A DNA stretch of 64,000 bases from NCBI GenBank assembly GCA_963767925.1, contig CAVYGB010000008.1:1920001-1984000 (forward strand). Reading direction: 5' to 3'. Each line of letters begins with the position of its first letter. Positions within the stretch are counted from its first letter, which is position 1. This DNA is from an uncultured delta proteobacterium (GTDB lineage: Bacteria; Myxococcota_A; Polyangia; Fen-1088). A program made the translations under genes and the position numbers. The notes beneath the pieces were generated by a model that saw only the letters and a list, made by a program, of their open reading frames with translations, had not been told where the DNA came from and searched no databases. Shown one piece after another: positions 19,492 to 39,730 of the stretch.

Positions 19492-20196
19492 ATGCCCGAA
19501 TCGTTGACCCTGGCCCCGACGCCGTCCCCCCGCACCTTCCGCGCTCCCGACGGATCCCTGCTGACGCCGCCCGCCGACTGGGCCTGTCTTCCCCCCGGGG
19601 ACGCCGGGCTCACCCGGCGGGTGAAGGCGGCCGGGCCGTCCTGGGTCGTGGTGGAGAAGCGCGGACGCAAGATCTTCTCACAGGGTCTCTGGGCCCCGGC
19701 GGTCAACATCGCACAGGCGCGCGCGATCCTGGTCGCCGAACGCGCGACAGACAGCTACGCCAGGCGCCGCGAACAGGACCTGCGCCGGCGTGAAACCCAG
19801 CAGTCCGCCTACGTGGAGCGCTTCGAATCCGAGGTGCTCGCCTTCCTCGACTTCTCCCCCCGCTGGCGCAGCCTGGCCGCCAGCCTGGCCGCGCAGGTCA
19901 CCGCCCTGGCCACGCCCGTGGGCAGCGGCACGGTCGCCCGGACCACACGGATCCCCGTCGACCAGCGGGCCGAAGCCGCCTTGGTGGCCTGGATGCGCCA
20001 CCAGACCACCCTCTACGACCGCCTGAAGATCCCGCGCATCAAAGGCATGCGCCGCCAGGTGCGCCGCGAGCTGGCCTCGATCTCGCGCGTCGTCCTGGAT
20101 CGCCACCGCCTCGACGATGGCCACGACGCCGCCCCCGCCGGCCCCTGCCCCCTCTGCGCGGCCCTGGCCCCGGGAACCCCGGCCCCGGAGCGCTGA
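19492..20196 (+). CDS. DUF2293-domain protein
   Basis: LPPGDAGLTRRVK, KIFSQGLWAP, ATPVGSGTVART, AWMRHQTT.YD. Confidence 0.82.
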   Translation: MPESLTLAPTPSPRTFRAPDGSLLTPPADWACLPPGDAGLTRRVKAAGPSWVVVEKRGRKIFSQGLWAPAVNIAQARAILVAERATDSYARRREQDLRRRETQQSAYVERFESEVLAFLDFSPRWRSLAASLAAQVTALATPVGSGTVARTTRIPVDQRAEAALVAWMRHQTTLYDRLKIPRIKGMRRQVRRELASISRVVLDRHRLDDGHDAAPAGPCPLCAALAPGTPAPER

Positions 20197-20254
20197 GGTT
20201 CCGGACCTCCTCCGCGCCCGGCCCGCCCTCCGCCAGCGATCGAAATGAGCGGCC

Positions 20255-20908
20255 TCAGCCTTTGTTCGCCCGGACGAACTTCAGGTGCGTGACCCTGGGC
20301 GCGGCCACCGTGCGCACCAGCTCCAGCCCATGCAGATCGCCGCCCAGCCCCGCGAACAGGCGCTCGCCTCCTCCCAGCAGAATGGGCACCAGATTGATCT
20401 CCATCTCGTCGACAAGGCCAGCCGCCAGGTACTGGTTCGCGACGCTGGCGCCGCCCGCCAGCGCGACATCTTTGCCCCCGGCCGCGCGGCGTGCCTGCTC
20501 CAGCACGGACTGGATGCCCTCGCTGACGAAGTGAAAGGTCGTGTCCCCTTCGCAGGTCAGGGGTGCCCGCGCGTGGTGGGTGATCACGAACACCGGGTGG
20601 TGAAACGGCGGGCTGGCTCCCCACCAGCCCGTCCAGGGTTGCTTCACGTCCCAGCCGCCAGGATGCCCGCCGAACATGTTGCGCCCCATGATCGTCGCCC
20701 CGATGTTGGCCGACGACTCGTCGACCACCCCGCTGCTCTCGTTGGTCTCGCCCCCCTCCAGGCCGTGCACGCTGCGCCACTGTTTCAACGGGACCACCCA
20801 CTCGTGCAGGCCTTCGCCCCCCTTCCCCAGCGGATCTTTCACGCTCTGTTCGGGCCCCGCGACAAACCCATCGAGCGACATCGAGATTCGAAACCGCAGC
20901 CTGGACAT
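20255..20908 (-). CDS. Dihydrofolate reductase-like (RibD C-terminal) protein
   Basis: ISMSLDGFVAGP, GATIMGRNMF, PVFVITH, GGASVANQYL.AGLVDE, PILLGGGERLF. Confidence 0.9.
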   Translation of the reverse strand: MSRLRFRISMSLDGFVAGPEQSVKDPLGKGGEGLHEWVVPLKQWRSVHGLEGGETNESSGVVDESSANIGATIMGRNMFGGHPGGWDVKQPWTGWWGASPPFHHPVFVITHHARAPLTCEGDTTFHFVSEGIQSVLEQARRAAGGKDVALAGGASVANQYLAAGLVDEMEINLVPILLGGGERLFAGLGGDLHGLELVRTVAAPRVTHLKFVRANKG

Positions 20909-21024
20909 GGTCAGCCTCCCTGGCGCCGAAGTGTCTTCCGGCGCTCCTGACCAGGCGACGATCCAACCCGTCCCGGATCGACATGCCAGCGAGGTTTTTC
21001 AGACCTCGTGCGCGCCCGGCCCCC

Positions 21025-21348
21025 CGCTTGGCCGCCGCTCACCGCCTTCCGGAGCTCGAGCGCGCCCTCCTGGGAACGGTCGAGCGCGCGCGGCCCGGGA
21101 GAAGCTTGCCGCCCTGCGGGAGGCCCTCGGGAAGGACCGCGAGGCGTTCGCCAGGTCTTCCAGGCATCTTCTCCGGCGAGCTGCGCCTTGCCCCCACCGC
21201 AGCGGGCGACCGTAAGCGCTCGGCGATGGCCGGGAGCGCACGGCTCGACCAGCTCACCAATTCGAGTGACCCCACCGGGTCTTTTGAGTTGGTGAACCCG
21301 GTGATGCCGGTGGCGGTGGTGGCGCCACGACGGCGGATGGCGGTGTAG
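21025..21348 (+). pseudogene. Decayed 3' remnant of a large serine recombinase
   Basis: Frameshifted pieces LAAAHRLPELERALL / AREKLAALREALGKDR / GIFSGELRLAPTAAGDRKRSAMAGSARL align with the C-terminus of 39731-41425 (LAVAGRLPQMRRDLL / ARQKLASLRQALATDR / ALFPPGSLRFRPTVADGRKVWAIHGTAHL) and run into the same att core. Confidence 0.8.
21266..21279. repeat. att core GTGACCCCACCGGG (left copy)
   Basis: Exact 14-bp match to 41387-41400 (tRNA-Glu 3' end); flanked by the imperfect inverted repeat TCACCAATTCGA / TTGAGTTGGTGA. Confidence 0.88.
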
Positions 21349-21490
21349 TACGGCGGTTGAATGCCTGAGGCAGGGGTCCGTGCGGCGATTGCCGAGCATG
21401 GTGGCCGCGTCTTCCGGGGCACCGAGCGCAGTGTGCCAAACGTAAGGCCCGGAACCGGACACCGGGCCGACAGACGGGTATCGTGTTCAC

Positions 21491-21709
21491 ATGGCGGTCG
21501 TTCTGAACTGGGACGGGAAGGAGGTTCCCGAGGAGTTGCGCACGCTCCCCAAGGGGCGCTACGTCATCGCACCGGTGGACGCCGTACCTGCGCTCACGGC
21601 CGATGAGGAGCAGGGATTGGAGGAGGCGCTCGACGCCCTGGACCGCGGCGAGGGCGTGGACCTCGACCAGGTCCGATCTGAACTCGACGAGCTCGTGCGG
21701 CGCCGTTGA
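21491..21709 (+). CDS. Putative antitoxin
   Basis: 72-aa acidic ORF (LTADEEQGLEEALDALDRGEGV) overlapping the toxin start (TTGA). Confidence 0.7.
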   Translation: MAVVLNWDGKEVPEELRTLPKGRYVIAPVDAVPALTADEEQGLEEALDALDRGEGVDLDQVRSELDELVRRR

Positions 21710-21992
21710 GGTTCACGCTCGCCCCCCAGGCGCGGCAGGACCTCCACTCGGCCGTCTCGTACTTGCTGGACAGGAATCCGGCTGCCGCCGTCGCCCTCAA
21801 GGACCAGTTGATCGGGACCATCGAGCAACTCGCCCGCGGCGACTTCGACGGTCCGGAGGTGCAGCTCCGGTCCGGCGGTGGGTCCGGAGTTGGCCGGTCC
21901 CACCGTACCGGATCTATTACCAGCGCACCGCCGACGTGCTGAGGGTCGTCCGCGTCTACCATCAAGCGCGCCGGCCAATCGTCCGGAGGTAG
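21706..21992 (+). CDS. ParE/RelE family toxin (frameshift near 21875)
   Basis: LAPQARQDL..AVSYL.DRNPAAA in one frame; RSWPVPPYRIYYQR...LRVVRVYHQARRP in another. Confidence 0.82.
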
Positions 21993-21997
21993 CCCGG

Positions 21998-22951
21998 TCA
22001 ACCACGTCGGCGGCTACCTTCGCCACCGCCGCTTCGACCTGTCGGACCAGGTCGCCCGGGCCGACCTGCGCCCCGGATCATGTCCGAGAAGGAGCGGCAG
22101 ACGAACCGGGGGTAATGCCTCTTCGTTACCAGCGGCGAGGAGTGGTTTACCGCCGCAGAGACCTCATCGAGGGGGACACCGGCTTCCAGGTTGTGACTGA
22201 TGAACGAGTGCCGGGTCGCCTCGTAGAAGGTCATGTCGGGCACCTCGCAGACAATCCGGGCGGCCTCCCAGCAACTCTGCACGAACTCCCTCCGGCCCCT
22301 GCCAGCTTGACGCACGCGGACGGTCACCCGGCTTTGTCGGCGTGAAGACCAGGTCCTCGCGCCCCGCCCCTTCCGCCCTCCGGCGCTGCAGCCATGGGCC
22401 GATCACCTTCTTCGTGTCCACGTGTGCGGGCACCATCTTGGCCTTGCTGTGGCCCCGCCAGTCTTCCTTCAGAGGTCCGATTCCGTCCTCCGCGGCACTC
22501 CCCCGCACCACGATGAGTCCCTCATCCACGAACGCGAAGTCGTGCATGCGCAGCGCCCGTGTCTCGGATGGTCGCAGTCCTGACCGGTTGCCGAGCCAGA
22601 AGACGTAGTTGACCGGCTCCGGCAGCGCGGTGAACAGCTTCTGGAATGTCTTCTCGTCCCGAATCCACGGCCGGTCCCTGTCCGGCGCCGGATGCGGTCG
22701 GCGCCCCGGGGGCACCGACCGGCAGGGATTCACCTCGGCGTGCCCCATCCCGATGGCCCAACTCCAGAATCGGGAAAGCAAGTTGAAGGCGTGCCGCTGT
22801 GACTGGCCACTACCTCCACTGCCCTTCAGGACTTGTAGCCATCTCATGACTGCGGCTACCGTCTGGCCGTCGCCCAGCGTGACGTCCCTCCAGACGGGGA
22901 CCACGTGCGCCTCGGCGCGCTTCCGGTCGTTCTTCGCGTTCCGGTTGGACA
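21998..22951 (-). pseudogene. Tyrosine recombinase, 5'-truncated by an IS21 element and frameshifted near 22295
   Basis: GNRSGLRPSETRAL, FYEATRHSF, VNHSSPLVTKRHY; closely similar to 35037-36266; similarity stops at 22951. Confidence 0.85.
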
Positions 22952-23068
22952 TGCTTGTCGACGGCAGCCTGAATCCGCATCGATCTGACGGTCGAGGTCG
23001 GACCGGCAGGAAAGTCGCGGAGACAGTGCCCGCGGTGTAGACGCACGCGCGCGGGAGCGGAAAGAGGT

Positions 23069-23098
23069 GGGGGACCGGGTCTTGCCACCCGGTCCCCC
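23069..23098. other. Perfect 12-bp hairpin in the leader of IS21 element A
   Basis: GGGGGACCGGGT-cttgcc-ACCCGGTCCCCC. Confidence 0.6.
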
Positions 23099-23173
23099 GT
23101 GCGCGGATGGACGCGCGCTGGGAAGATCGCCCAGCTCGCGCCCGCCGTCCAGTTCCTCCGCTGCCGCGGGCGG

Positions 23174-23845
23174 ATGGACGAGCTCGAGTTCCTGGACCTG
23201 CGATGCGCGTGGTGCCTGCGGACCTTTCAGGTCTGCGTCCCCTGTTTCCGCGGGCAGCGGTATTGCACTGAGGACTGCCGCAAGCACGGCGACCTGCGAG
23301 CCCGGCGAGCGGCGAATGCCCGGCACCAATGTTCGGCTGAAGGCCGCGAGGATCACCGGGACCGCATGCGGGACCTGCGCGCTCGGCGGCGATGCCGCGT
23401 GACGGATACGGGTATCGAGAAATTTGCGTTCCTGGCTCCCTTGGTGCCGCCGGGTGCTCCGGCCTCCGCCATGCCGGCGGGATCCGCGGGCGACGGCCAA
23501 GGAGAGTCCGACGAGCCGATACACCGTGATGCTGTCGACGAGCATGAGCCGGACGCGCCTGCTCTTGCTGGATGGCCAGGACGAGCTGATGAGGGCGGTC
23601 CTGCCGCCCGGGCACCTGCTCCGTCAGCGCAGGGCAGCCAAGAGCCTGCTCGAGGGGATCTCGCTGTGGCTGGACGCCCAGGTCTCCGTTGTGCTGTCTG
23701 CGGACGAGGCGGAGGCCTCGTACTACCTGGACCTCGTCGACGAGCTCGGCACGCCAACCCGAAGCGTGTACTTCGACGTGCGGCTGGTCGACAAGGCCGG
23801 GCGCCGCCGGCCGCGACGTCTGCGCGGCGTGTGCGATTTCACTGA
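23174..23845 (+). CDS. Cys-rich (putative Zn-binding) IS21 accessory protein
   Basis: CAWC..F.VCVPCFRGQRYCTEDCR..RRAANARHQ...GR; homologous to 29806-30261. C-terminal extent uncertain because it overlaps the next ORF. Confidence 0.65.
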   Translation: MDELEFLDLRCAWCLRTFQVCVPCFRGQRYCTEDCRKHGDLRARRAANARHQCSAEGREDHRDRMRDLRARRRCRVTDTGIEKFAFLAPLVPPGAPASAMPAGSAGDGQGESDEPIHRDAVDEHEPDAPALAGWPGRADEGGPAARAPAPSAQGSQEPARGDLAVAGRPGLRCAVCGRGGGLVLPGPRRRARHANPKRVLRRAAGRQGRAPPAATSARRVRFH

Positions 23846-23888
23846 CCTGCGCCAACTGTCGCTCCTGGCCGACGGTGGTGCCCGATGA
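23529..23888 (+). CDS. Second IS21 accessory hypothetical protein
   Basis: Protein-like ORF (RTRLLLLDGQDELMRAVLPP..LLEGISLWLD); stop overlaps the istA ATG (ATGA). Confidence 0.7.
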   Translation: MLSTSMSRTRLLLLDGQDELMRAVLPPGHLLRQRRAAKSLLEGISLWLDAQVSVVLSADEAEASYYLDLVDELGTPTRSVYFDVRLVDKAGRRRPRRLRGVCDFTDLRQLSLLADGGAR

Positions 23889-25363
23889 CACTCGACCCCG
23901 AGCGTGAAGCCGAGATTCGCCGGCTCCATTACGCCGAGCATTGGCCGGTCGGCACGGTGGCGTCACAGCTGGGCGTGCACCCAGAGGCGGTCAAGCGCGT
24001 GCTGGGCCTGCTCGAGGCGCGCGCACCAGGCCCGCCACGACCGCGCATCGTCGATCCCTTCCGGTCCTTCGTGGAGCAGACCTTGTCCAAGTACCCCCGT
24101 CTGCGCTCGACGCGCCTGCACGACATGCTCGTCGCCCGGGGCTTCAAAGGCAGCGTCCGCACCCTGCGAGACTTCGTCGCCGGTGTGCGGCCCCGGCCAG
24201 CGCGAGAGGCGTACCTCCGCACCGACCCGCTCATCGGCGAGCAGGCCCAGGTGGACTGGGCGCACGTGGGGGATGTCGATGTCCGTGGTGGACGCCGCAC
24301 GCTCTGGCTCTTCGTCATGGTCCTCTCCTGGTCGCGCGCGCTCTGGGGCGAATTCGTCTTCGACCTCACCGTCTACTCCCTGCTTCGCTCGATGCTCCGC
24401 GCAGCCATCCACTTCGGTGGCAACTGCCGGCAGTGGCTCTTCGACAATCCCAAGACCGTCGTCCTCGGTCGGGTCGGCGAGGCCGTCCGCTTCCACCCGC
24501 TGCTGCTCGACTTCGCCGGCAAGATGTACGTCCAACCGCGCGCCTGCGCGGTCCGCAAGGCCAACCAGAAAGGTCGCGTCGAGAGGGCGATCCGTTTCAG
24601 CCGTGACCGCTTCCTCGCCGGTCGCGAAATCACGAGCATCGAGCAGGGCAACCGCGAATTCGCCGATTTCATGGCCGGCATCGCCCTCGATCGGCCCCAT
24701 CCCACCATCCCCAACCGCACCGTGCGCGATTGCTTCGAGGAGGAGAGGCACCGGCTGCTCGCACTTCCGCCGGCCCTGCCCGAGACCGACCTGGTCACGC
24801 CTGCGCGCGTGGACAAGACCGCGTTCATCCGCTTCGACGTCAACTCCTACTCCGTCCCCCCGCGCCACGTCCTCGAGACGCTCACCATCGCCGCAGACGA
24901 TCGCTGGCTCCGCGTCCTCGATGCCTTCGGCGCGACCGTCGCCAGGCACGCTCGCTGCTGGGGCCGGCGCCAGACCATCGAGCTGCCCGAACATCGTGAG
25001 GCCATTCTCGAGCAGAAGCGCGGCGCCCGCGAGCACAGGGGCCGCGACCGCCTGCGCGCCGCGGTCCCCGCGATCGACCGCCTCTTCGACCGTTGGCTGG
25101 AGATGGGCTGCAACGTCGGCAGCATGACGTCCCGAACCCTCGTCCTCCTGGACCTGTACGGCCGTGACCTATTCGCCGCTGCCGTGACCGACGTCCCGGC
25201 CCGCGGCACCTGGGACGTCGGCGCAATTTCGCAATTGTGCGAGCTGAGGCGCGTGGCCGCCACCCGCCCCGTGCCCGTCCCCGTTGCGCTCGGAGCCCAT
25301 GTGCCAGAGCGAGACGTGATCCCCCACGCCCTGGAGGGCTACGATGCCATTCGACGTCGTTGA
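23885..25363 (+). CDS. istA: IS21 transposase IstA
   Basis: N-terminal HTH, GEQAQVDW, LSWSR, LFDNPKTVV, KGRVERAIRF. Confidence 0.92.
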   Translation: MTLDPEREAEIRRLHYAEHWPVGTVASQLGVHPEAVKRVLGLLEARAPGPPRPRIVDPFRSFVEQTLSKYPRLRSTRLHDMLVARGFKGSVRTLRDFVAGVRPRPAREAYLRTDPLIGEQAQVDWAHVGDVDVRGGRRTLWLFVMVLSWSRALWGEFVFDLTVYSLLRSMLRAAIHFGGNCRQWLFDNPKTVVLGRVGEAVRFHPLLLDFAGKMYVQPRACAVRKANQKGRVERAIRFSRDRFLAGREITSIEQGNREFADFMAGIALDRPHPTIPNRTVRDCFEEERHRLLALPPALPETDLVTPARVDKTAFIRFDVNSYSVPPRHVLETLTIAADDRWLRVLDAFGATVARHARCWGRRQTIELPEHREAILEQKRGAREHRGRDRLRAAVPAIDRLFDRWLEMGCNVGSMTSRTLVLLDLYGRDLFAAAVTDVPARGTWDVGAISQLCELRRVAATRPVPVPVALGAHVPERDVIPHALEGYDAIRRR

Positions 25364-25959
25364 AGCTCTCCGCGACCTCGGATTCCGCTGCCCGACGGCC
25401 AGCATCACGGCCATGCTCGAGGAGGCCACCAAAGCCAAGCTTTCCCCGATCCAGGTCTGTGAGCGTCTCGCCAAGCTCGAGCGTCGCGAGCGCGACGCGC
25501 GTAATCTCGCCCGCCGCACACGCGCCGCCACCCTCGGTCCATTCGCCGCGCTCGACACCTTCGATTGGAATCACCCCGCAGCATCGACCGCGCGCTCTAC
25601 GAGCACCTGCTCGGCCTCGACTTCGTCGAAGCCGGTGAGAACGTCCTGCTCCGTGGCCAGAGCGGCGTCGGCAAGACCACGCTTGCCCAGAACCTCGCGC
25701 TTGCGGCGCTCAACGCCGGCCACCGCGTCCGCTTCTGCACCTTGGCCTCGGCCCTCACCGACCTGCTCAAGCAGGAGTCCTTGCCTGCCCTCGACCGCCG
25801 CCTGCGGCGCTACGTCCAACCCACCGTCCTCGTCCTCGACGAGCTTGGCTACTTGCCCTGCGACTCGCGATCGGCTGACCTGCTTTACACAATCCTCAGC
25901 CGCAGGCACCTCGTCCGGCCGACCGTGATCACGACGAACCTGGCCTTCAAGGAATGGGG
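25344..25959 (+). pseudogene. istB: IS21 ATPase IstB, frameshifted near 25578 and truncated after AFKEWG
   Basis: LDTFDWNHP / RSIDR, Walker A GQSGVGKT, Walker B LVLDELGY, ITTNLAFKEWG; the DRL..H C-terminus is missing. Confidence 0.88.
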
Positions 25960-26274
25960 TGCTGGTGGCAGTGAAATCCTCCCCCGGCACGGCGGCCGAA
26001 ATCGCCTCGGGTGACGGAGAGGCGGATCGCGCGGTGACGCCGATTTCGGGCCCGACAGGGAATCGCTTTGGGTGCCCGGCGCGACCTGATTGGGCCGGAA
26101 GTTGCCTGGTAGGTCCGTGGCGAGGCGAAAGCCTGTAGTGGGGCCGCGAGGGCGCCAGGGCGATCTCAAGGGGGGCACGCGGATGGCGGAGGGTCGGCCG
26201 GGGAGGCGTGCCCCCCCTCCCGGGGCGCGGCTCGAGGCGGATCCCGAGACAGACGGCGCCCGCTCGGCGGTCGA

Positions 26275-26505
26275 TCAGAAGAGCGAGTCGTCCGGATCGT
26301 ACGACGGGGGATCGCTGTTCGAGGCGGGATCCTCAGCGACGTCGGGATCGGGCTCGGGCTGGAGGATCGCCTCGCGGTAGACCTGCCACAGCTCACCCTG
26401 GAGCTGCTCGAGGCAGTCGATGAGCGCCCCGGCCTCGCGCGGGCCGAGCGCGGGCAGCACGAGGGTGACGATGCGTGGTGGAGGCGCGGCTGGACGACTG
26501 CTCAC
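26275..26505 (-). CDS. Small acidic hypothetical protein downstream of istB
   Basis: GTG overlaps the istB stop (GTGA); 76 aa, ALIDCLEQLQGELWQVY...YDPDDSLF. Confidence 0.6.
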   Translation of the reverse strand: MSSRPAAPPPRIVTLVLPALGPREAGALIDCLEQLQGELWQVYREAILQPEPDPDVAEDPASNSDPPSYDPDDSLF

Positions 26506-27345
26506 GATCGCTCCGGGCGCTTCCGGTCGGCGTCTCGGTGGCCGCGATGGCCGGAGGGACGTCGACCTCGCTTCGGCGGCAGTGGGCCGGGGGACGAGTC
26601 TCGATCGACGCGGAAGCTCTTGGCGTCTTTGGGGAAGGTGAAGATGTGCGCGCCCTCGATGAGGCGGTCGAGGGCGGGTGTGACCTGGGAGGGACTGCCG
26701 AGCGCCTGTGGCCACTCCTCGAAGCCGAGGTTGGTGGCGAGGATGATCGAATCCGCGACGGTATCGGCGGGCGACGAGCTCGAAGAAGACGCCGGCGAAG
26801 TCGTGCTCGCGCTTGCGGGGACTGTTTCCTAGCTCGTCCACAATCAATAGATCCGGCTTGCACATCTCGTCGAGGATCTGGTCGAGCGTGTCGTCGGCGA
26901 GCGAGGCGTAGAGGCGGGTCAACAGCTCGTAGGCGCGGCAGAAGCGCACGCGGTAGCCAGCCTGACACGCGCGCACACCGAGGCTCACCGCCAGATGGGT
27001 CTTGCCCACGCCGCTCGGGCCGATCCACAGAACGGCCTGACGGCGGTCGACAAAGCCCAGCTCGGCGAGGTCGAGCACCTGCTTGCGGTCGAGGCTCGGC
27101 TGCTTCTTGAAATCGTAGTCTTCCAGCCGACAAATCTCGGGGAAGTCGGCCTGGCTGATCCGTTTTTGTGTGCCCGTCTCCTTGCGTGCCAACACCTCCG
27201 CCTCGGCGATGCGTGCAATGAACGCGAGGTGCCCGAGCTTGAGCGCGGCGGCCTGTCGAATGTGCTCGTCCAGATTCTGGGCGGCGTGGCGCAGCCCGAT
27301 CCTGCGCAGGTGCTCGTACAGGCGATCCATTTCTTCGCTAGCCAT
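26502..27345 (-). CDS. istB: IS21 ATPase IstB (frameshift near 26755)
   Basis: LEDYDFKKQPSLDR, GPSGVGKTHLA, LLIVDELG; after the shift IILATNLGFEEW..ALDRLIE. Confidence 0.88.
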
Positions 27346-28915
27346 GCGCTCCTCCGTCTTCGTCGTCGGGATCCCCGCGCCGCTTGGGCGGCGGGGGCTC
27401 GGTGGATGGATGGCTCGCACGATCGCGGGCCAATCGCTCGTACGCGGCCAGGCTCCGCTGGAAAGATCCCGCGCCCTTGAGGAAGTCAGCCACGTGAGCG
27501 GGCACCGGGTCCGACGCTGGTACAACCGGACCGGGCGCTCCGGGCGGGCGCGGCGGATGACGGCCGGTCACGATCCGCGCGACCGCATTGTGATCGAAGG
27601 CGCCGTAGCGGGTCGCATGGCGCAAGGCCTCGGCCACGCGGATGACGCCGACTCTGTCGGCGAGCTGCAAGATTTTGCTCATGTGGTAGCCGGCCGCGCC
27701 CCCGCGCGCCTCGCGCAGGCCGGCGGCGAAATCCTCCGCGCCGCTGCCGAGCCGCAAGAATTGCTGGGCCAGCACGTGCCGGCTCGTGCTCCGCTGCCGA
27801 AACTCCGCCTCGTGCTCGGGCAAGATGACCCGCGGTCCGTCGGTACCGATGGCGTGCTCGGCGACGATCTGGCCATCGACATGCACCTCCATTCGCCCCT
27901 CGAGCACGTGCAGCCACGCGTCTTTGCCGGTCAGGCGCGGCGGCACCGAATAGCGGACGCTCTGCCAGGCGACACAGAAATCGTCGCCGACGAGCCGCGG
28001 GACCACCTCTGCCGCGACGAAGGCCTTGGGCGGCAAAGGCACCAGCTGCGGCCGCTCCTCGGCGAGAAGATGCGCGGGCTGCTGCCCCGTCGTACGGTGG
28101 TCGCGCACGTTTGCCCGGGCCAACCAGGCCACTGCCTGGTCGTTGAGATCGCCGAGATCGCGAAAGCGACGGCCCGCCAAGAAATTCTCCTCGGTGAAGC
28201 GAAAGGGCTCCTCCACCTTGCCCTTGCCCTCCTTGTACCCGGGGGCCAGCGGCACCGCCGTGAAGCCGTAGTGCTGCACCATCTTCTCGAACAGCGGGTG
28301 ATAGAGCACGCCGTCGCGGTAGCTCTCGAGCACGACTTGCTTCATCCGGTCGTAGAGGATCTCGTGCGGTACCCCGCCCGCTGCCTCGAAGGCCAGCACG
28401 TGACTGTGGCAGACGCTGTGCACTTCCGCCGACAGCGTGAAGCGCATGAACCGCCACCGGCTGAATCCCAGAACGAGAGAGAAGCACACGACCTTGGTGG
28501 GCACCTCGCCGAAGAGCACTGTGTATGGAGAGAGATCTACCTGTCCTTGCACGCCAGGCCCGGTCTCGAAGCGCAGGTGCGGACGTCGCCGGGTCTTGGG
28601 CCGAAAGCCGCGGATGTGCTTCTTGAGGATCGTGTAGCCGCCCTTGTACCCGACGGCCTCGATCTCCTCGTACACGCGGACCGCCGTCAGCTCCTGGTCG
28701 AGCACGAGCGACCGGATGAGCGGCCGGAATGGATCGAGCATCGACGGCCGTGGCTTCCTTTGCCGCACCTTTCGTCGCACCACCGCGCGCACCGTCTTCG
28801 GATCCACACCGAGCTCGCGCGCGATCGCGCGGATCGACTGACCCTCTGTCTTTAGCCGCTCGATGAGGACGTTGCGGCGGTCGCGTCGCTCGCGCCGGCG
28901 CTTGGTCGTTTCAAC
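27338..28915 (-). CDS. istA: IS21 transposase IstA (no canonical start codon seen near the HTH)
   Basis: SIRAIARELGVDPKTVR HTH, RFETGPGVQGQVD, LGFSR, LYDRMKQV, KGKVEEPF. Confidence 0.88.
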   Translation of the reverse strand, partial: VETTKRRRERRDRRNVLIERLKTEGQSIRAIARELGVDPKTVRAVVRRKVRQRKPRPSMLDPFRPLIRSLVLDQELTAVRVYEEIEAVGYKGGYTILKKHIRGFRPKTRRRPHLRFETGPGVQGQVDLSPYTVLFGEVPTKVVCFSLVLGFSRWRFMRFTLSAEVHSVCHSHVLAFEAAGGVPHEILYDRMKQVVLESYRDGVLYHPLFEKMVQHYGFTAVPLAPGYKEGKGKVEEPFRFTEENFLAGRRFRDLGDLNDQAVAWLARANVRDHRTTGQQPAHLLAEERPQLVPLPPKAFVAAEVVPRLVGDDFCVAWQSVRYSVPPRLTGKDAWLHVLEGRMEVHVDGQIVAEHAIGTDGPRVILPEHEAEFRQRSTSRHVLAQQFLRLGSGAEDFAAGLREARGGAAGYHMSKILQLADRVGVIRVAEALRHATRYGAFDHNAVARIVTGRHPPRPPGAPGPVVPASDPVPAHVADFLKGAGSFQRSLAAYERLARDRASHPSTEPPPPKRRGDPDDEDGGAHG

Positions 28916-29787
28916 GCGGACCCAAGCGCGGTCAGAAGTGTCGAGACCGCCGCCTTCGTCTGCCCCAGATCCTTGGCCAGCAGCCGATGATCTGCCTCCG
29001 GCGGTGGTGGATCCAGAAGCCCTGCCGTCCGCGGCGCCACTCCCTGCAGCAGGCGCAGCAGGCGCACCAGCTTCTGGCTCTGCGACGACAGCCGCGGATC
29101 CTGCGGCGGCTGCGACAGCTCCGGGTGCGCCTTGCTCAGCGCCGCCCTCGGCTCGCGCAGTAGGTACCGCCGCGCCTCCGGATCCGTCGCTCGCTGCCAC
29201 AGGCTCACCAGGATCTCGGTGTCCCGTGGCCCGAGCCCCGCGCTCTGAGCCGCCGCCGCGACCTCGAGTTGGTTGCCCGCGGGCAACGGCAGAAGCCGCC
29301 GCGCCACTCCCGGGTGCATCACCCCCACCTTGATCCCCTCCACCAACTCCGGGTGCAGCCGCTCCACCAGCCCGATCCGCCGCGACACCCAGCTCTTGTG
29401 TCGCTGTAGCATCTGGGCGATCTGAACCTGCGTCAGCCCCGTCGCCGCCAGCTCCCGCAGCACCAACGCCTCCTCCAGCTCTGTCATCGAGTGCGGGCCG
29501 CGATTGAGCGCCAGCATCGTCACCCACTGCCCCGCCTCGTCGAGCGGCATCACCCGCACCATCAGCGTCGGCCACCCAAGCGCCGTCGCCGCCTCCCTCC
29601 GCTTGAAGCCGTCCACCAACTCCAGCTTCCCCTCGCGGTCCACCGCCACCATCGGTTGCAGCTGCCCCTGCGCCGACAAGCTCTGCCGCATCCGCTCGAC
29701 CAGCGCTGGCCGCTGGCAACGCGCACGCCCGAGCGTCGTCCCCAGCATCGCGATCGGGCGCTGCTCGGCCGGGCTCGGCGCTACCAT
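28852..29787 (-). CDS. ParB N-terminal-like domain + HTH protein
   Basis: MRQSL..QGQLQPMV..LVDGFKRREAA..LG; HTH LTQVQIAQMLQRHKSWVSRRI; RBS GAGGAG. Confidence 0.82.
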   Translation of the reverse strand: MVAPSPAEQRPIAMLGTTLGRARCQRPALVERMRQSLSAQGQLQPMVAVDREGKLELVDGFKRREAATALGWPTLMVRVMPLDEAGQWVTMLALNRGPHSMTELEEALVLRELAATGLTQVQIAQMLQRHKSWVSRRIGLVERLHPELVEGIKVGVMHPGVARRLLPLPAGNQLEVAAAAQSAGLGPRDTEILVSLWQRATDPEARRYLLREPRAALSKAHPELSQPPQDPRLSSQSQKLVRLLRLLQGVAPRTAGLLDPPPPEADHRLLAKDLGQTKAAVSTLLTALGSALKRPSAGASDATAATSSSSG

Positions 29788-29805
29788 TGTCTCGCTCTCC
29801 TCTCG

Positions 29806-30261
29806 TCATGGGGGGCAGTGATCGGACGGGGGCCATCGTCGCGGCGGTCTCTGCGCCCATCCCACCCGCCCGCACCGCATGCAATGCCCCCGTCGCGGCC
29901 ATGGAGCCACGTCGACAACCCGCGCGGCTACAGCCTGATCTATGTCGATCTTCGGGTCCGGTACCGCCGTGGCCGTGCTCGACGCCGGTGACGGCGCCGA
30001 GATGGCGGCCGCCGCGGGCAGCTCCGCCGCTGGGCGCCTCTGTCGCAAGCCGCTGCGGTAGGCCTCGCACGCTGCCGCTCGACGGAGTCGCCCCCCGGGT
30101 GTCGACATGTACTGGGCCTGCGCTCGCCGGCACTGCTCCCGACGTGCACGCTCCCGGCAGCCACCGCCGCAGTAGCGCTGTCCGCAATAGCAGCGGCGGC
30201 ACATGAAAAACGGCCGACCGCACTCCGGCCGGGCGCACTCGAGAACACGTAGAGGAGCCAC
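29806..30261 (-). CDS. Cys-rich (putative Zn-binding) IS21 accessory protein
   Basis: CARPECGRPFFMCRRCYCGQRYCGGGCR..RRAQAQY...GR; C-terminal CMRCGR. Confidence 0.7.
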   Translation of the reverse strand: MAPLRVLECARPECGRPFFMCRRCYCGQRYCGGGCRERARREQCRRAQAQYMSTPGGRLRRAAACEAYRSGLRQRRPAAELPAAAAISAPSPASSTATAVPDPKIDIDQAVAARVVDVAPWPRRGHCMRCGRVGWAQRPPRRWPPSDHCPP

Positions 30262-30794
30262 TCGTCCCTGCGACAGGCGCTGGACGAGACGCAGGGACTG
30301 TGCGAAATCGGACCTACCGGATCGCGTCCCTGCGTTTCGGCCCGAGGGCTCGGAGCTACCAACTCCGGGCCCTCACCTTTTCGGTCACCTGCTCAGAGCC
30401 GATCTACCCCGACACGACGCTCCGTAGCCAGAAAGGCCGCCTGGCCGGCGTGGCCGTCAGCCGTCCCCCCCCGAGGGCCTTTTCACCGCCACGGTGGGGG
30501 AGAATTACGCCGCCACTCGCAATTGTTCGCCCACGACGGGCCGGGGCCGTGAACCAGAACCCTCTCCTCAAGCTGTCCAGTTACGTGGCAACCCGCCCCG
30601 CCGCGACACTCTGCCACGGCGACCAGCATAGGCCCTCACGCCCCTGCTCGATTATCAACCATCTTCGGCGCCCGGCTTGCTTGGAAGGTGCTCGCGGCCC
30701 ATCGTGTGTCGGTGTTCATGGCCACGAAAACCACCCCCCATCACGCCGCCCTTCGGGCCGGCGCTCTGGCGTCGTACCTCTCCGTGAGATCTGA

Positions 30795-31199
30795 ATGGAA
30801 GCATCTCGGACGCCCGTATCGGCCCCGGCTTCACCGCCACTGGTGCTGGTCGTCGACGATGACGCGGACATCCGGGAGGCACTGCGGGACGTGCTCGAAG
30901 CGGCTGGATACGCCGTCGCCGAGGCGGCCAACGGCCTGGAGGCATTCACTTATCTCGAGCGGAATCCAAGGCCGGGGGCGATCCTCCTCGATCTCTTCAT
31001 GCCGGTCATGGATGGGTGGCAACTCGCCAGACGAATCGAATCGGTTCCAGCGCTGGCCAGCGTTCCGCTGGTCGTGGTGACGGCCAGCGGGTCTCACTGG
31101 GGGTATCCCAGCAAACGCGTGCTGCTAAAGCCGATCGACCTGCCCCGCCTGTTGCAGGAGCTCCATGACCTGGCCCCGGTACCCGAAGCGGGCCGCTGA
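30795..31199 (+). CDS. Single-domain response regulator (CheY-like)
   Basis: VLVVDDD, AANGLEA, ILLDLFMPVMDG, VVVTA, LKPID. Confidence 0.9.
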   Translation: MEASRTPVSAPASPPLVLVVDDDADIREALRDVLEAAGYAVAEAANGLEAFTYLERNPRPGAILLDLFMPVMDGWQLARRIESVPALASVPLVVVTASGSHWGYPSKRVLLKPIDLPRLLQELHDLAPVPEAGR

Positions 31200-31285
31200 C
31201 GACTCGAATTGCCAATAGCACGAGGCGTATCCGCAGTCGTCCGATAGCAGCCCGTTTGCCTGGTGAGGTGCCGCCAGCCGGCCCG

Positions 31286-32461
31286 TCAGTATTCGGGAAG
31301 CTCGATCTCGTCGGTAAGCTGGCGACCGATCGCCAGGTCGGCCACCAAGGGGAGGTTGAGCAAGCGAGTCGTCTGGCGTTGCAGGAACAGGCGCAACCTC
31401 GAAGAGGGGGCAAAGAACCGGGCGAACCGCTCCGCGGCCTGCTGTTTTCGGGCGATGAACGCGCCCAGCCGCTCCTGATATCGATTGAACGCGCGTGTGT
31501 GGTCTCCGCCCGCAACCTTCAACTCCCCGGCCAGTACGTACGCGGAGACCATCGCGAGCGCGGCGCCCTGCCCGGCGAGCAGCGAGGGGCAAAAGGCCGC
31601 ATCACCCACCAGGCCGAGACGTCCTTTCGTCCAGCGCTCCATGCGGATCTGACTGACCCGATCGAAATAGAGATCCTGCACCGTCTCCATCGCGGCCAGG
31701 ATCTGGTCGCACTCCCAGCCTGCACCTGCGAACCGCCGGCGCAGCCTGGCCTTGGCCGCGGACACATCGTTCAGCTGTTCTCCGCCGGTCTCCTTCTGGG
31801 CGTACACGAACAGGAACATGGTCCTATCATCGCGAAGGCTGAACCGCGCCGCCTGGCCCCCAACTTGGTGATACATGACATAGACGTCGGGATCTCGCGG
31901 GCGGTAGTGCGCGATCTCGAAGGCAGCCACCTGGCAACCGAGGTATCTCTCGAATCGGTCCTCTCCGAAACCGAGCCGTCGGACGTTCGAATGCAGCCCG
32001 TCGGCGCCGATCACCAGATCGTAGCTCCGCCGCCCCGACCGCGCGAGCTGAACGCGCACCTGCGGGTCTTCCGGTTCCAGCGAGACGATGGACTCCCCGA
32101 AGATCACCTCTGCCCTGGTCTCGATCGTCCGGTAGCAGGCGGCCGCCAGCTCCCCCCGAGCGATGCTGAGGTAACGTCCCCGGGTCAGCCGGGCGAACAC
32201 CTCGGCCGAAAAGCCGCCCACCCGCCCGCCCGCGCGGTCGACCATCCGAACCTCGCGGACCTTGTACGCCCTGGCCTCCAGGTCGTGGAGCAGGCCCATC
32301 CGCTCGGCGATATCGAAGCCGGCACCCCAGAAGTCGATGATGTAGCCGCCGGTACGCAGCGCTGGCGCCTGCTCGACCAGGGTCACCTCCATCCCGTTCC
32401 GGATGAGCCAGTGGGCCAGCGTTGGGCCGGCCACGCCAGCACCGGAGATCAGAATCCTCAC
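31286..32461 (-). CDS. FAD-dependent oxidoreductase/monooxygenase
   Basis: ISGAGVAG, DLVIGADGLHSNVR, LVGDAAFCPSLLAGQG. Confidence 0.9.
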   Translation of the reverse strand: MRILISGAGVAGPTLAHWLIRNGMEVTLVEQAPALRTGGYIIDFWGAGFDIAERMGLLHDLEARAYKVREVRMVDRAGGRVGGFSAEVFARLTRGRYLSIARGELAAACYRTIETRAEVIFGESIVSLEPEDPQVRVQLARSGRRSYDLVIGADGLHSNVRRLGFGEDRFERYLGCQVAAFEIAHYRPRDPDVYVMYHQVGGQAARFSLRDDRTMFLFVYAQKETGGEQLNDVSAAKARLRRRFAGAGWECDQILAAMETVQDLYFDRVSQIRMERWTKGRLGLVGDAAFCPSLLAGQGAALAMVSAYVLAGELKVAGGDHTRAFNRYQERLGAFIARKQQAAERFARFFAPSSRLRLFLQRQTTRLLNLPLVADLAIGRQLTDEIELPEY

Positions 32462-32708
32462 GCCCCGAGCCTACGCGACCGCCAGCCCGGACGCTCAGCG
32501 CAGAGTGATGGTCACGAACCCGGCTCCGCGTAACCCGATCTTGCAACTCGGCAAGGTGGGCGTTCGCCCCAGGCCGATAGGGCAATCGCCCGGATTGGGA
32601 GCAGGCGTTCCGCTCGATAGGGTAAACGTATCGCCGGCTGCAGGGAGGGTCACCGCCGTGCCAGCCGTCGAATGGAGGCGGTAAATGAGGACGATTCTGG
32701 TTGATGCG

Positions 32709-33227
32709 GATCACTTTCACGGTCGGCTCCAGTCCGTCGGTCAGCATCACGTTGCCGGGCTTGATGTCGCCGTGAACGATCCGTCGCCCGTGGGCGGCCT
32801 CCAGCGCAGCCGCGATCTGCGCCACCATCCCTCCTGCGCGTTGCGGAGACATCAGCCCGCGCTCCGAGATGTGGCGAGCGAGGTCCAGACCCTCCACGTA
32901 CTCCATGGCCAAGAAGGGACCTTGCGGCCCCCGGGTGTCAAAGTCGAGCAGGCGTACCACGTTCGCATGCTGGACCAGCCCGAGCATCCTCCCTCCCTCA
33001 CCGAAGCGAGCCAGTGCCGCAGGGTCTTCGCGCAGGCGGGAGGGCAAGACCTTCACCGCGAAGCGACCACGCCAGCGCGTGTGGCTCGCAATATAGACTT
33101 CTCCCATCCCACCGGCCGCAAGTTTCCCGAGGATTCGGTAGGAACTGCCCACCAAGGCGCCGCGATCGAGCTTGTCTGATTCGTCGGCTGGCACCGGCGA
33201 TCGTTCCCCGGGCACCTCAGCCTCCAA
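32709..33227 (-). pseudogene. Ser/Thr kinase N-terminal fragment, truncated just before DFG
   Basis: AGGMGEVY, AVKVL, AMEYVEG, VHGDIKPGNVML..VKVI, then unrelated sequence. Confidence 0.82.
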
Positions 33228-33651
33228 GACCGTGCCATCAGCTGGCCCGCTCGACTGGGCGGCTACTCCGGCTGCGAAACCCCGACTCGGACGTTCATGT
33301 GGACAGCGAGACCGGCCGCCCGAGCGTGGCCAGACGCCACCCGAGGCGCTATGCTACGCCACGAGCGCAGACCGACGGCTCAGGACGGCTCCTCGTCTGA
33401 CGAGCTCGTTGCTCCAGGCTCGCTGGATCACCGATCTGCGCATCGTCAACCCTGACGCCGACGAGTGAGCTACGCGTCGAGGCGCGTGTGGCACTCGCGT
33501 TGCAGTTGCACGCCTCAAGATGGCATCGAGGGCACTCGACGCTGCCGTGTTAGCTCGCACGTAGTTTCGTAGATCACCGCGAGGATCCTCCGGCACTGCG
33601 CCCCCGGTGAGCCGGGTGAGATGGGGGGCGAGACCGGGACGGTGTGGCGGG

Positions 33652-34431
33652 GAGGTATACGCCGAGATCGACAATGCCGACAAGACGTACCTGCTGTCGG
33701 GGGGAAAATGGTACGCCGTCTCGGCGAGCTTCGTGGCCGAGGTCAACGCGTCGGTGCAGGCCTTGGAGAACAAGACCGTTGAGCTCCCCAACTACGACGA
33801 CACCAACGAGGCGACCTACAACGCCCGCGCGGCGGCGCAGAACCCGAGCTACGCTCTCATGGACCGGAAGAACATCCCCTACGGCGCTGCCCGCAGCTCC
33901 ATCGAGCTGTGCGACCTGTTCAGCGACAGGAAACAGCTCATCCACGTCAAGCGCGGGGCTTCCAGCGACGTCCTGAGCCATCTCTTTTCCCAGGGCGCGG
34001 TCTCGGCCGAGGCGTTCGCCATGGCAGCGGACTTTCGCGACAAGTGCCGGACCCGCCTCCCGGCCTCTCACCGATCTCTGGTCCCAAAGGACCGGCCCTC
34101 GTACGACGCCTACGAGGTGGTTTTCGCGGTCATCACCGGCAGCCTCAAGGGCCTCGCCGAAGCCCTGCCCTTCTTCAGCCGGATCAACCTGCGCAATCGC
34201 GCGCAGACGTTGCGCGCGCTGGGATACCGGGTCTCGTTGACCAAGGTCCCGGTCCAGGCGTCAGCCGTGGTGTCGACGGCCCGCTCGCGCATCCGCGCCC
34301 GGCCGCCCTCGGCCACGGTGCCTACGCTGGCGGGCGCCCCGATGCATGCCCCGCCAGGCTCCCTGCCGCATCCTGCCGGGCTGAAAGGCCGACGCGCACC
34401 GGGCAAGAGGCGCCCTCCGGCTCCACGTTAG
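33652..34431 (+). pseudogene. C-terminal fragment of a TIGR04141/DUF6119-like protein
   Basis: YLLSGGKWY, E..YN, IELCDL...LIHVKR..SS.LSHLFSQG.VS, LPFFSRINL; no N-terminal half or credible start. Confidence 0.72.
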
Positions 34432-34590
34432 GATCGTGGACCGATCCGGTCACTCGATGTGACCGTCAGGCCACGCCCGTTCCAGCACCGAGCCCGAACG
34501 GACCGATGCTTCGCACGTCGCCGCAGCCTGCCAGCCGAACAGAGTCACGGCACCGTCCTGCGCCTCACCACCGGCTCGGCTCCGGTCACC

Positions 34591-34890
34591 TCAGCCGAAC
34601 ATCTTGTCCAGCCGCTTCCGCTTGGGAGCGGCTGGACCCTTCGGGCTGTAGAGGTACGGATTGCTGCCAAGTCGGTCCCGCGTCTCCGTCTCGACCTCGC
34701 TCAGCGGCTGGCCGAGGCCGATGAACAGCTCAAGCTGGCTGACGATGTGGAACTTCAGCTTGCCGGCCGCGGTGGTGAGGGTGCAGACCCTCGACTCGAC
34801 CGTCTGACTGTCCGGGTCGCCACCGTAAAAGGCGATCTTGGCCTCTTCTCGGCTGTACCCCAGGCCGAACTTCTTCCTGACGGTCGCCAT
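34591..34890 (-). CDS. Hypothetical protein
   Basis: Protein-like 99-aa ORF downstream of the integrase; an alternative start at 35040 overlaps the integrase stop. Confidence 0.55.
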   Translation of the reverse strand: MATVRKKFGLGYSREEAKIAFYGGDPDSQTVESRVCTLTTAAGKLKFHIVSQLELFIGLGQPLSEVETETRDRLGSNPYLYSPKGPAAPKRKRLDKMFG

Positions 34891-35036
34891 CGCCGAACGT
34901 CGGTGCGCAGACGTAGATCGGTCGGGGGCCAGCGGGCCCCGGCTTGGGCGTCTGCGGTAGGCGGACAACCGACATGATCGGGTGGTGCTCATCATACGCC
35001 GCCCCGTCGACAGCACCAGCCCCCGAGACCATCCGG

Positions 35037-36266
35037 TCATTCGCGGCGGTCACCACCTCTGCCTCGTCGAGGACTACGGCGGCCGATCGGGGCAACGCCA
35101 CGAATCGCGTCCGAGAACGACCGCCGGATGAACCGGGCGTAGTGCTTCTTCGTCACGACCGGAGACGAGTGGTTGACCGCGGCCGAGACCTCGTCGAGCG
35201 GGATGCCGGCTTCGAGGTTGCGGCTGATGAAAGAGTGTCGGGTTGCCTCGTAGAAGGTCATCTCCGGCACGCCGCACCCCACGCGGGCCTTCTCCCAGCA
35301 GCTCTGCACGTATTCCTTGCGAATCCCGGCCCAGCCGGTGGTTCTCGGGCGGTCGCCCGGGTCGATGGGGACGAAGACCAGGTCCTCGCGCCGCGCCTTC
35401 TCGGCCCGGCGGCGCTCAAGAAAGGGCCCCAGGATCTTCGCCGTATCGGCGTGGGCGGGGACCATCTTGGACTTGCCCTGCCCGCGGCGATCCTCCTTGA
35501 GCGGGCCGATCCCCTCGTCGGTCGCGCTCCCGCGCACCACGATCAGGCCGTCATCGAGGTAGGCGAAGTCCTGCATCCGGAGCGCCCGCGTCTCCGATGG
35601 CCGGAGGCCGGAGCGGTTGCCCAGCCAGAAGATGTAGTTCACCGGCTCCGGGAGCACGGCGAACAGCTTCTCGAAGGTCTTCTCGTCCTGGATCCATGGC
35701 CCGTCCGTCTTCGGCGCGCCCTGCGGGCGCCGGCCCGGCGTCACCGAACGGCAAGGGTTGACCTCCGCGTGGCCGAGCTCGATCGCCCAGCTCCAGAACC
35801 GGGACAGCAGGTTGAAGACGTGCCTCTGTGACTGCCCGCCTCCGGCTGTCTTCTTGAGCAGCTCGAGCCACCGCATGACGCCGGCCACCTTTTGCCCCTC
35901 GGCCAGGGTGACGTCCGCCCACGCGGGGATCACCTGCACCTCCGCCCGACGCCGGTCGTTCTTCGCATTCCGGTTCGACAGGCCCGCCAACCAAACGGCC
36001 ATGAGCGGCCCCATCGTGGGAGCCGACGGCGCGGCCGGCTCCGGCACGCCGGCCGACGGCGCCCCTGCTACCGCCCCCGGCGCATCCTCCTCCATCCCCG
36101 GCTGCCCCGCCGCTACGCGCAGCTCGATCTCCGCCAGCCGCGCCCTACCCTCCGCCTTCGACCGCACCCCTCTCAGCAGCCGGGTCCGCCGGGTCCCATC
36201 GACGTCGTAGTAGTCCGCGTACACCTTGGGCAGGTCACGCGTACCCCGGATAACGATGCGGCCCAC
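35037..36266 (-). CDS. Tyrosine recombinase/integrase, intact
   Basis: Arm-binding-like N-terminus, GLRPSE (R), PLKE (K), YEATRH, VNHSS, KHY (Y); GTG start with GGGAG RBS. Confidence 0.9.
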   Translation of the reverse strand: MGRIVIRGTRDLPKVYADYYDVDGTRRTRLLRGVRSKAEGRARLAEIELRVAAGQPGMEEDAPGAVAGAPSAGVPEPAAPSAPTMGPLMAVWLAGLSNRNAKNDRRRAEVQVIPAWADVTLAEGQKVAGVMRWLELLKKTAGGGQSQRHVFNLLSRFWSWAIELGHAEVNPCRSVTPGRRPQGAPKTDGPWIQDEKTFEKLFAVLPEPVNYIFWLGNRSGLRPSETRALRMQDFAYLDDGLIVVRGSATDEGIGPLKEDRRGQGKSKMVPAHADTAKILGPFLERRRAEKARREDLVFVPIDPGDRPRTTGWAGIRKEYVQSCWEKARVGCGVPEMTFYEATRHSFISRNLEAGIPLDEVSAAVNHSSPVVTKKHYARFIRRSFSDAIRGVAPIGRRSPRRGRGGDRRE

Positions 36267-36394
36267 GGCTAGCTCCCGCTCCTGCACGGGTACCCGCACT
36301 TTTGGAGTACCGGAGGAGTACAGGTCCTTCGGGGCGATCCGGCCTGGAGTTTCCGGATCGGTGGATTCTCGTCAGAGATCCACAGCTTGCGCTG

Positions 36395-36471
36395 CGCGCC
36401 CGGGCTGAGTCGAACAGCCAACCCCAGGCTTCGTAGGCCTGGGGCCAGCACTGGTCCGGTGTAGCGGGGGG
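36395..36471 (-). tRNA. Atypical or degenerate tRNA-Arg(ACG)-like element
   Basis: Anticodon arm CAGGC-CT ACG AA-GCCTG; T arm GGCTG-TTCGACT-CAGCC; 3' acceptor strand CGGGCGC-G. The 5' strand CCCCCCG pairs only 5/7 and the D arm is non-canonical. Confidence 0.65.
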
Positions 36472-36584
36472 AAACCAGAACCGCCGCTACTTCGGAACAC
36501 CCACAGAAATCTGCCCGACGGAACGGCCCTGCCGCCCGCCTTGGCCGAGCGGCGCTCAGTTGAGCTGGGCGCCCCCCGTGCGGG

Positions 36585-37187: not shown

Positions 37188-37327
37188 CTACGTCGTCACC
37201 ACCGAGTGCAAACGTTGGACCGATCCCTTCGACCAGCCCTGGCCGGCCTTCGCAGGTGCCCCGGCCGGGAATCCGGTCGCCGACCGGATAGCCAGCAGTC
37301 TTGATTCCGATCGTCCGTACCTCCAGG

Positions 37328-39698: not shown

Positions 39699-39730
39699 TC
39701 CCGTGCAGCAGCTCTGGCAATCTGACGGCC

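Follow-up and report, generated by a model that had tools for sequence, protein, structure and literature searches.

A parB-like gene nested within an extended istA reading frame in a lineage of IS21 transposons

We analysed a 64,000-nucleotide stretch of DNA, hereafter the window, from an uncultured delta proteobacterium (assembly GCA_963767925.1, contig CAVYGB010000008.1, positions 1,920,001 to 1,984,000; C8:1920001-1984000 of this genome, which we call G000). The window contains an IS21-type insertion sequence (IS) of 4,562 bp (25960-30521) in which a gene for a ParB-like protein lies wholly within a long istA frame. All genes are on the minus strand, in the order ORF1 (a Zn finger protein), parB-like, istA, istB and ORF5. 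An initial annotation made from the sequence alone had described five co-oriented open reading frames (ORFs) between 26-bp terminal inverted repeats, and we find the same layout, with imperfect repeats (20/26 identical). It had listed istA after parB; the istA frame, however, is open from an ATG at 29809 across parB, and both this nested frame and a palindrome inside parB had been missed. The features of the element are as follows.

30496-30521, minus strand: upstream (left) terminal inverted repeat, 26 bp, starting TG; found again beside a different flank at G000:C13:119579 and in a public sequencing run, X1
~30477-30490: core of the internal second repeat, left end
29806-30261, minus strand: ORF1, 151 aa, Cys-rich (ORF translation)
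27338-29809, minus strand: long istA ORF, 823 aa (open frame; NF033546)
28852-29787, minus strand: parB-like gene, 311 aa, wholly within long istA in another frame (Pfam, structure model)
29272-29287, no strand: 16-bp perfect palindrome GTTGCCCGCGGGCAAC, at parB codons 168-172 and also within the istA extension
26502-27345, minus strand: istB, AAA+ helper, 280 aa when intact, directly downstream of istA (Pfam IstB_IS21, E 5.7e-42)
26275-26505, minus strand: ORF5, 76 aa, acidic tail DDSLF, its start overlapping the istB stop (ORF translation)
~25991-26004: core of the internal second repeat, right end
25960-25985, plus strand: downstream (right) terminal inverted repeat, 26 bp, starting TG; recurs at G000:C8:884846 and C2:496951

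The element shares much with canonical members of the family (IS21, IS5376). Its IstA passes the NF033546 IS21 transposase model (252 bits against a cut-off of 160) and has a DDE core (D425, D487, E533) that is invariant in 36 sequences, IstB is an AAA+ protein, and relatives make short target-site duplications. The ends start with TG, and each carries a second repeat 24 bp inward (repeat positions 8 and 32), as in the end layout, with repeated sites at each end, given for IS21 in the available part of PMC11208146. Unlike the canonical elements, it does not have the two-gene layout with an istA start next to the helix-turn-helix (HTH); it carries ORF1, ParB and ORF5 in addition, elements of its kind being 4.1-5.5 kb long. 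The clade to which it belongs departs further, with an IstA of about 800-840 aa, parB nested in the 5' part of istA and an internal palindrome.

A second frame across parB

In the window, istA has no ATG, GTG or TTG within 60 codons of the HTH. The long frame starts at the ATG that overlaps the TGA of ORF1 (ATGA), 22 nt before the parB ATG, and runs stop-free across all of parB. The same arrangement recurs in relatives: wherever ParB identity is at least 48%, istA lies in the -1 frame relative to parB (65/65), and 73/74 loci combine an open frame across parB with a start a short way before it (these stop counts leave out the last 25 parB codons). Metagenome loci with a full parB have both features in 56 of 57 cases, and the GTDB loci together with the window have no stop in the nested frame in 19/19, against 0.6-4.6 expected per locus under synonymous shuffling. 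The sole exception among the 74, L110, was considered as a revertant and rejected; it has a 34-bp deletion and is a deletion-broken copy. After dereplication at 85%, the long frame is present in 43 of 44 representatives, with complete long IstA proteins of 799-842 aa. Counts out of 43 below leave out L110.

Codon choice in parB points to selection on the second frame. Across the 43 representatives, T at the third codon position (T3) is absent wherever it would form a stop in the -1 frame (0/1,573 vs 540/7,376 in other contexts). In the same stop-forming context T3 is found in the istA core (151/3,202), in istB (92/1,360) and in 15 GC-rich non-nested parB genes (32/580), a range of 4.7-6.8%. 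Kinship or inherited inertia does not explain this avoidance, since 4-fold sites are near saturation and T3 is common to element pairs in only 24%. A canonical start near the HTH is lacking in 28/43 representatives, and six have no candidate start there at all. The long start and the parB start lie 4-25 nt apart, and a Shine-Dalgarno-like motif precedes the former in 32/43 and the latter in 30/43, compared with 131/973 internal ATG/GTG codons. Altogether, these patterns argue that stops are selected against in the second frame, whose start is conserved, and we consider it very likely that the long frame is translated.

The long IstA would consist of an extension overprinted on parB (residues 1-288), followed by a helix (291-321), the HTH and the DDE core. 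The extension is predicted to be disordered (predicted local distance difference test, pLDDT, below 50) and is Gly/Ala/Asp-rich, with a mean charge of -11 vs the +25 expected from istAB codon use. Pairwise identity is 39% in the extension, 54% in ParB and 60% in the IstA core. Selection on individual residues of the extension was not detected; apparent invariants such as Q179 are accounted for by the palindrome or by stop avoidance.

How the nested state arose is suggested by its relatives. In distant, non-nested relatives istA is mostly a separate gene that begins at an ATG or GTG of its own at -4 to -12, and the frames are mixed; in the sister group istA is ATGA-coupled to parB in the -1 frame, which suggests that nesting arose when an upstream start replaced the local istA start. 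Third parB positions are G-rich in the sisters L184-L188, L210, L045 and L049, though their -1 frame is usually closed, and this may be pre-adaptation or reversion. Gene callers appear to miss the long frame: the protein database holds only 2 long-form proteins vs 606 ParB matches, so the annotated IstA proteins of the nested clade are probably truncated.

Several observations temper this reading. A GTG or ATG lies near the HTH in 15/43 representatives and a CTG at +3 in 18/43, so some IstA may be produced in a short form alongside the long one. Six sister elements are already G-rich at third positions (G share 0.57-0.83, charge +5 to +21), which weakens any attempt to credit the acidic make-up of the extension solely to selection on it. 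The -1 frame of sisters has 0-5 stops, being open by itself in L186 and closed only near the end in L210; high GC thus makes open frames fairly easy. Finally, the extension has no position-specific constraint (4-fold-site ratio 0.87 vs 0.85 and 0.89), so that no function of its own is apparent in these comparisons.

Two other accounts of the frame have to be considered. A ParB-IstA fusion could be made by -1 frameshifting from the parB start, with the upstream start incidental. Such frameshifting is common in IS elements, the -1 relation holds in all 65 clade loci and an early slip in parB would likewise need an open frame. We find this unlikely, however, because there is no conserved slippery motif (the best heptamer position, seen in 16/43, reflects the palindrome, and no more than 3/43 have A/T tetramers) and because an istA-frame start is kept just upstream of parB in 73/74 loci. 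That GC-rich codon bias left the frame open as a side effect, with IstA starting at a near-cognate codon close to the HTH, would fit the few stops in sister frames and the CTG at +3, but is very improbable given the complete lack of T3 in stop-forming contexts (about 5-7% in controls), 487 stops in the +1 frame, which is open in 0/43, the conserved Trp/Arg helix 291-321 that a +3 start would omit and the 6/43 representatives without any candidate start.

The ParB-like protein and its intragenic palindrome

The Cys-rich ORF and the ParB-like HTH protein with a DGFKRR motif had both been recognized in the initial annotation, and both identifications stand (151 aa for the former; Pfam HTH_ParB, E 1.4e-8, for the latter). 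The match to ParB_N is weak (E 0.004). The ParB-like protein comprises an N-domain (GQLQP, DGFKR), the HTH and a helical C-terminal part, and its structure model (pLDDT 88.7) retrieves Noc/ParB with Foldseek (E about 1e-10). The top VIA match to the N-domain is PadC, a CTP-binding adaptor from Myxococcus (Z 13.5, root-mean-square deviation 2.1 over 95 residues), only about 1 Z above Srx (12.4) and KorB (12.1).

The protein had been proposed to be a CTP-binding clamp on the strength of its GxxR motif. This motif (G60-F-K-R63) is invariant in 30/30 aligned homologues, so CTP binding is plausible. Alignment to solved ParBs places F61 at E78 of GERR and L94 at E111 of ENLQR; both catalytic glutamates are replaced. 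Since these glutamates are required for CTP hydrolysis, according to the accessible portion of PMC8494293, hydrolysis by the window protein is doubtful, although the invariant D59 might substitute for them. The same portion describes PadC as having Phe at the E78 position and no ENLQR and as binding CTP but not hydrolysing it, and the window protein likewise has Phe at that position and lacks the ENLQR glutamate. It differs from PadC in having a ParB HTH and a candidate DNA site and in sitting in a transposon. Compared with ParABS clamps, the N-domain fold, the HTH and GxxR are present, whereas the catalytic glutamates and an adjacent parA are not; the ORF list, Pfam and NCBIfam reveal no parA ORF between the inverted repeats.

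The candidate site is a palindrome with the consensus GTTGCC-N4-GGCAAC within parB. Six to eight of its 8 pairs are kept in 44/44 nested representatives and at least 7 in 38, whereas null draws gave at least 7 pairs in 340/8,800. Leu168 is encoded by the rare TTG codon in 44/44, compared with 236/1,938 Leu codons. The palindrome could be located in 36/39 non-nested loci, with 7-8 pairs in 29 (these rows include near-copies), and a compensatory GTTGCA/TGCAAC version is found in a Desulfobulbales group. No second conserved palindrome was found in ORF1 or elsewhere, and G000 has one other perfect match, with 1.4 expected by chance. Its 16 bp thus appear to be used three ways, as ParB codons, as part of the IstA leader and, probably, as a binding site. 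We think it likely that ParB binds the palindrome, which we predict to be its own loading site.

ParB is a stable part of these elements. Of 7,996 scored candidates, 606 are relatives of the ParB-like protein, and cluster representatives at E up to 1e-30 number 332. An alignment of ParB identified 67 GTDB loci, of which 63 were informative and 59 had istA directly downstream; of the other 8, four were too short and four lacked a downstream istA (one disrupted, two truncated and one with parB apparently alone). The reverse search with an IstA alignment gave 79 metagenome loci, and once 8 that were 5'-truncated and 6 with less than 300 bp upstream had been set aside, parB was upstream in 65/65 informative loci with a close IstA. 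IstA and ParB trees of 56 elements, the former a quick version, have the same subclades, and their patristic distances correlate (Spearman 0.88), consistent with co-divergence of the two proteins. This synteny and the congruent trees rule against the possibility, raised at the outset, that ParB is sporadic cargo. The nested elements form one clade (SH-like approximate likelihood ratio support 100 for IstA and 99 for ParB; the group was chosen by similarity to the query) that occurs in bins from many phyla. Desulfobulbus elongatus DSM 2908 (L076) is a cultured carrier of the non-nested form, whereas the record titles named no cultured organism with the nested one. In two database proteins, P0213 and P0224, a ParB-like part and a catalytic fragment of IstA are directly joined; both are probably deletion derivatives or misassemblies.

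The association weakens with distance. A phylum sample of 301 genomes searched with IstA had parB in 6/6 loci at 40-43% identity. Of the 23 loci further away, parB was present in 5, and ORF1 without parB in 15; these ORF1-bearing elements have 29-36% IstA identity, with absence judged by a ParB hidden Markov model. ParB thus marks one branch within a larger group of IS21s with accessory genes. Many IS21s (L190-L209) have no ParB but encode the Zn finger of ORF1 some 400-800 bp before istA, pointing to such a group with other genes in the ParB slot.

The elements are also mobile. G000 holds three partial copies elsewhere, 98-99.8% identical and with differing flanks, so that, counting the window copy, three downstream and two upstream ends are represented, and run X1 provides a further flank beside an element end. 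The same ends beside differing flanks indicate that the element has moved recently. So have its relatives. Genome G061 has 4 full nested copies with differing flanks, three with readable duplications of 5-6 bp, and G062 has 5 non-nested copies, two of them fully readable, with differing flanks and duplications of 8-9 bp. By locus, duplications are 5-6 bp at the nested L167-L169 and L135, and 8-9 bp at the non-nested L178, L179 and L073. The window copy disrupts the istB of a second IS21, an intact copy of which lies at C8:2077894-2074886. No target-site duplication is present at the window copy and the DNA past its other end is unrelated, which implies a later deletion or rearrangement of the site. 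The istB of the window copy has one extra base (a +1 frameshift) at ~26750 that is absent from the sister copy at C8:884846 and from the run X1 contig, and is therefore a sequencing error or a copy-specific lesion.

Possible roles of ParB on its own element

Our reading is that this IS21 transposon carries parB nested in a frame that is likely translated as an 823-aa IstA, and that ParB likely acts in cis on its own element; we are evenly poised on this reading as a whole. As to the role of ParB, we lean slightly toward regulation or self-marking rather than targeting or partition. On a single transcript, ribosomes would choose between the two neighboring starts and make either long IstA or ParB, a choice that would fix the IstA:ParB ratio and tie transposase output to ParB output. 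The IstA leader would be a tolerated soluble passenger, with selection holding the frame open and requiring no particular residues. Using the HTH, dimers of ParB would attach to GTTGCC-N4-GGCAAC and, with nucleotide bound in a PadC-like active site, close into a clamp that is released slowly and slides over the 4.5-kb element. In this way the clamp would control either the expression of istAB or how accessible the ends are, much as KorB and BisD act on their own elements, perhaps with ORF1 as a partner. Most parB frameshifts would also destroy the transposase, so the overlap would help to keep the module. IstA and IstB would cut and paste as in other IS21 elements, a reaction that is well established.

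Precedents exist for parts of this model. KorB with OB (RK2) and BisD with bisS (ICEclc) are likewise proteins of mobile elements that have a ParB N-domain and an HTH and are paired with a parS-like palindrome. Long-range control is shown for both in PMC11790492 and PMC12409273, where they are described as CTP-hydrolysing proteins of plasmids or integrative and conjugative elements. The window element, in contrast, is a 4.5-kb DDE transposon in which the catalytic glutamates are absent, the site lies inside a gene and there is no parA. Overprinted or nested genes are familiar from phages, with phiX174 B in A and lambda Rz1 in Rz. The IS21 case would resemble these in its same-strand dual coding and predicted disordered new frame, and in that overlap can protect from loss, as PMC8528312 describes for engineered overlaps. 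It differs in that the new frame would encode a transposase leader of ~290 aa, not a separate protein, and in the 16 bp that appear to be used three ways.

Two observations count against this reading as far as ParB is concerned. The many distant IS21s without ParB imply that IS21 elements in general can transpose without it, and nucleotide preference is not predictable from sequence, as stated in 10.1101/2025.10.10.680097.

The main rival holds that the clamp serves target immunity, end synapsis or handling of an excised circle, marking self DNA for IstB and IstA or holding an intermediate, rather than controlling expression. We regard it as somewhat unlikely. It would suit the predicted long life of the clamp and the presence of one internal site only, which lies 1.2 kb from one element end and 3.3 kb from the other, and, according to PMC11208146, how IS21 immunity works is unresolved. 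It is harder to square with the lack of parA and with the other ParB-IS21s of G000. A second, non-nested ParB-IS21 family there (C8:861336-863763 and C10:1309225-1310500) has a near-identical site, GTTGCCCCGGTGCAAC, so that cross-talk between the two families is possible, and would be expected if ParB marked self DNA.

Least supported is site targeting. The initial annotation had suggested that ParB might direct targeting as the extra proteins of Tn7 do, and there are parallels: like Tn7 and CRISPR-associated transposons with their selectors (TniQ/TnsD, TnsE, TnsF), the element combines a DDE transposase, an AAA+ ATPase and accessory DNA-binding genes. PadC-like ParB domains act as ATPase adaptors, and the window copy landed in another IS21 in an integrase-rich region. 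IstA and IstB are relatives of TnsB and TnsC according to PMC10293859, which also states that no target selector has been reported for IS21. We nevertheless find it improbable that ParB directs IstB to particular sites: flanks differ among the 4 G061 copies and the 2 fully readable of 5 G062 copies, in G000 the palindrome is absent up to 600 bp from each of the five element ends and the single other perfect site in that genome does not exceed the chance expectation of 1.4. There is also no fixed attachment site, TnsA was not seen and a Pfam scan of the window gave no TniQ-family gene at cut-off.

A bolder version of our preferred reading, which we offer tentatively, is that this clade fused a control circuit to its transposase in code, with a two-start switch, a non-hydrolysing ParB for cis control or immunity and an ORF5 that mimics the tail of the single-stranded DNA-binding protein (SSB) and recruits host repair proteins.

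We found no description of a ParB-bearing IS21 or of the nested frame in a literature search whose scope excluded ISfinder/TnPedia and subscription journals. The string 'transpos' is absent from the main text of 10.1101/2025.10.10.680097, the supplements of which may list such proteins, and the available part of PMC5009743 mentions neither IS21 nor ParB. The ParB-palindrome module is common to a wider group, and what stands out here is the transposase leader that is nested and overprinted on parB. IS21 is the structural model for ATPase-regulated transposition; PMC11208146 and PMC10293859 treat it as a system of two proteins for which no selector is known and target immunity is unresolved. With a widespread lineage in which ParB co-evolves and has a site of its own, IS21 immunity and regulation can be put to a direct test. 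The nested frame provides a bacterial element with a naturally occurring same-strand overlap of considerable length, whose selection signal is unusually clean and whose origin can be traced to ATGA-coupled sisters. It could for these reasons serve as a model both of overprinting de novo and of the protection that overlap gives genes against being lost.

Accessory ORFs and the surroundings of the element

ORF1 has an N-terminal Cys-rich putative Zn finger (Cx4C..CxxC..CxxxC) with a basic helix and a C-terminal CxxC; it has no Pfam or NCBIfam match. Its family is found in 108 loci, and in the 34 representatives having ORF1 it reads in frame into ParB in 7 and into IstA in 2. Searches of the ESM Atlas with ORF1 and ORF5 returned unnamed hypothetical clusters only. 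By phmmer, the window ORF5 has no homologue among the downstream ORFs of the loci, so its place appears to be a variable slot and not a conserved fifth gene. In 14/27 nested representatives with enough flank, istB is followed by a small ORF whose end resembles DIPF or DFPF, compared with 1/20 non-nested loci and 1/47 on the reverse strand. These tails presumably resemble the C-terminal tail of SSB. Small helical ORFs of this kind fill the ORF5 slot in L021, L023, L025, L090, L100, L104, L107, L109, L145, L147 and others; in L101 and L141 the slot holds a ~147-aa protein without assigned identity, and in L088 a 137-aa protein ending DDQVPF.

Rfam gave no match over window positions 20000-40000, and a sigma-70 promoter scan found none. 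None of 30 candidate viral contigs was related, phage records had no match and a plasmid search gave a single weak, unrelated ParB match.

The interrupted second IS21 (window 22956-25959, plus strand) is itself an accessory-gene IS21 without ParB, with a Cys-rich ORF (23099-23845), a 154-aa ORF (23424-23888), istA and istB in that order. It is inserted in a tyrosine integrase gene, and its istB in the window is also frameshifted. Two related tyrosine integrase genes (22164-22955; 35037-36299, minus strand) share 77% DNA identity over 354 bp, and tRNA-Glu and tRNA-Gln lie nearby at 41387-41635, which suggests an integrated element in which IS21s accumulate. Elsewhere in G000, a 416-bp end of another IS, which we take to be IS66-like from its GTA start and TnpA-like ORF, adjoins broken copies of both the window element type and the second ParB-IS21 (C8:883304, C13:118400, C10:1310526 and C8:3303757); this IS appears to have repeatedly inserted into, or deleted, ParB-IS21 copies.

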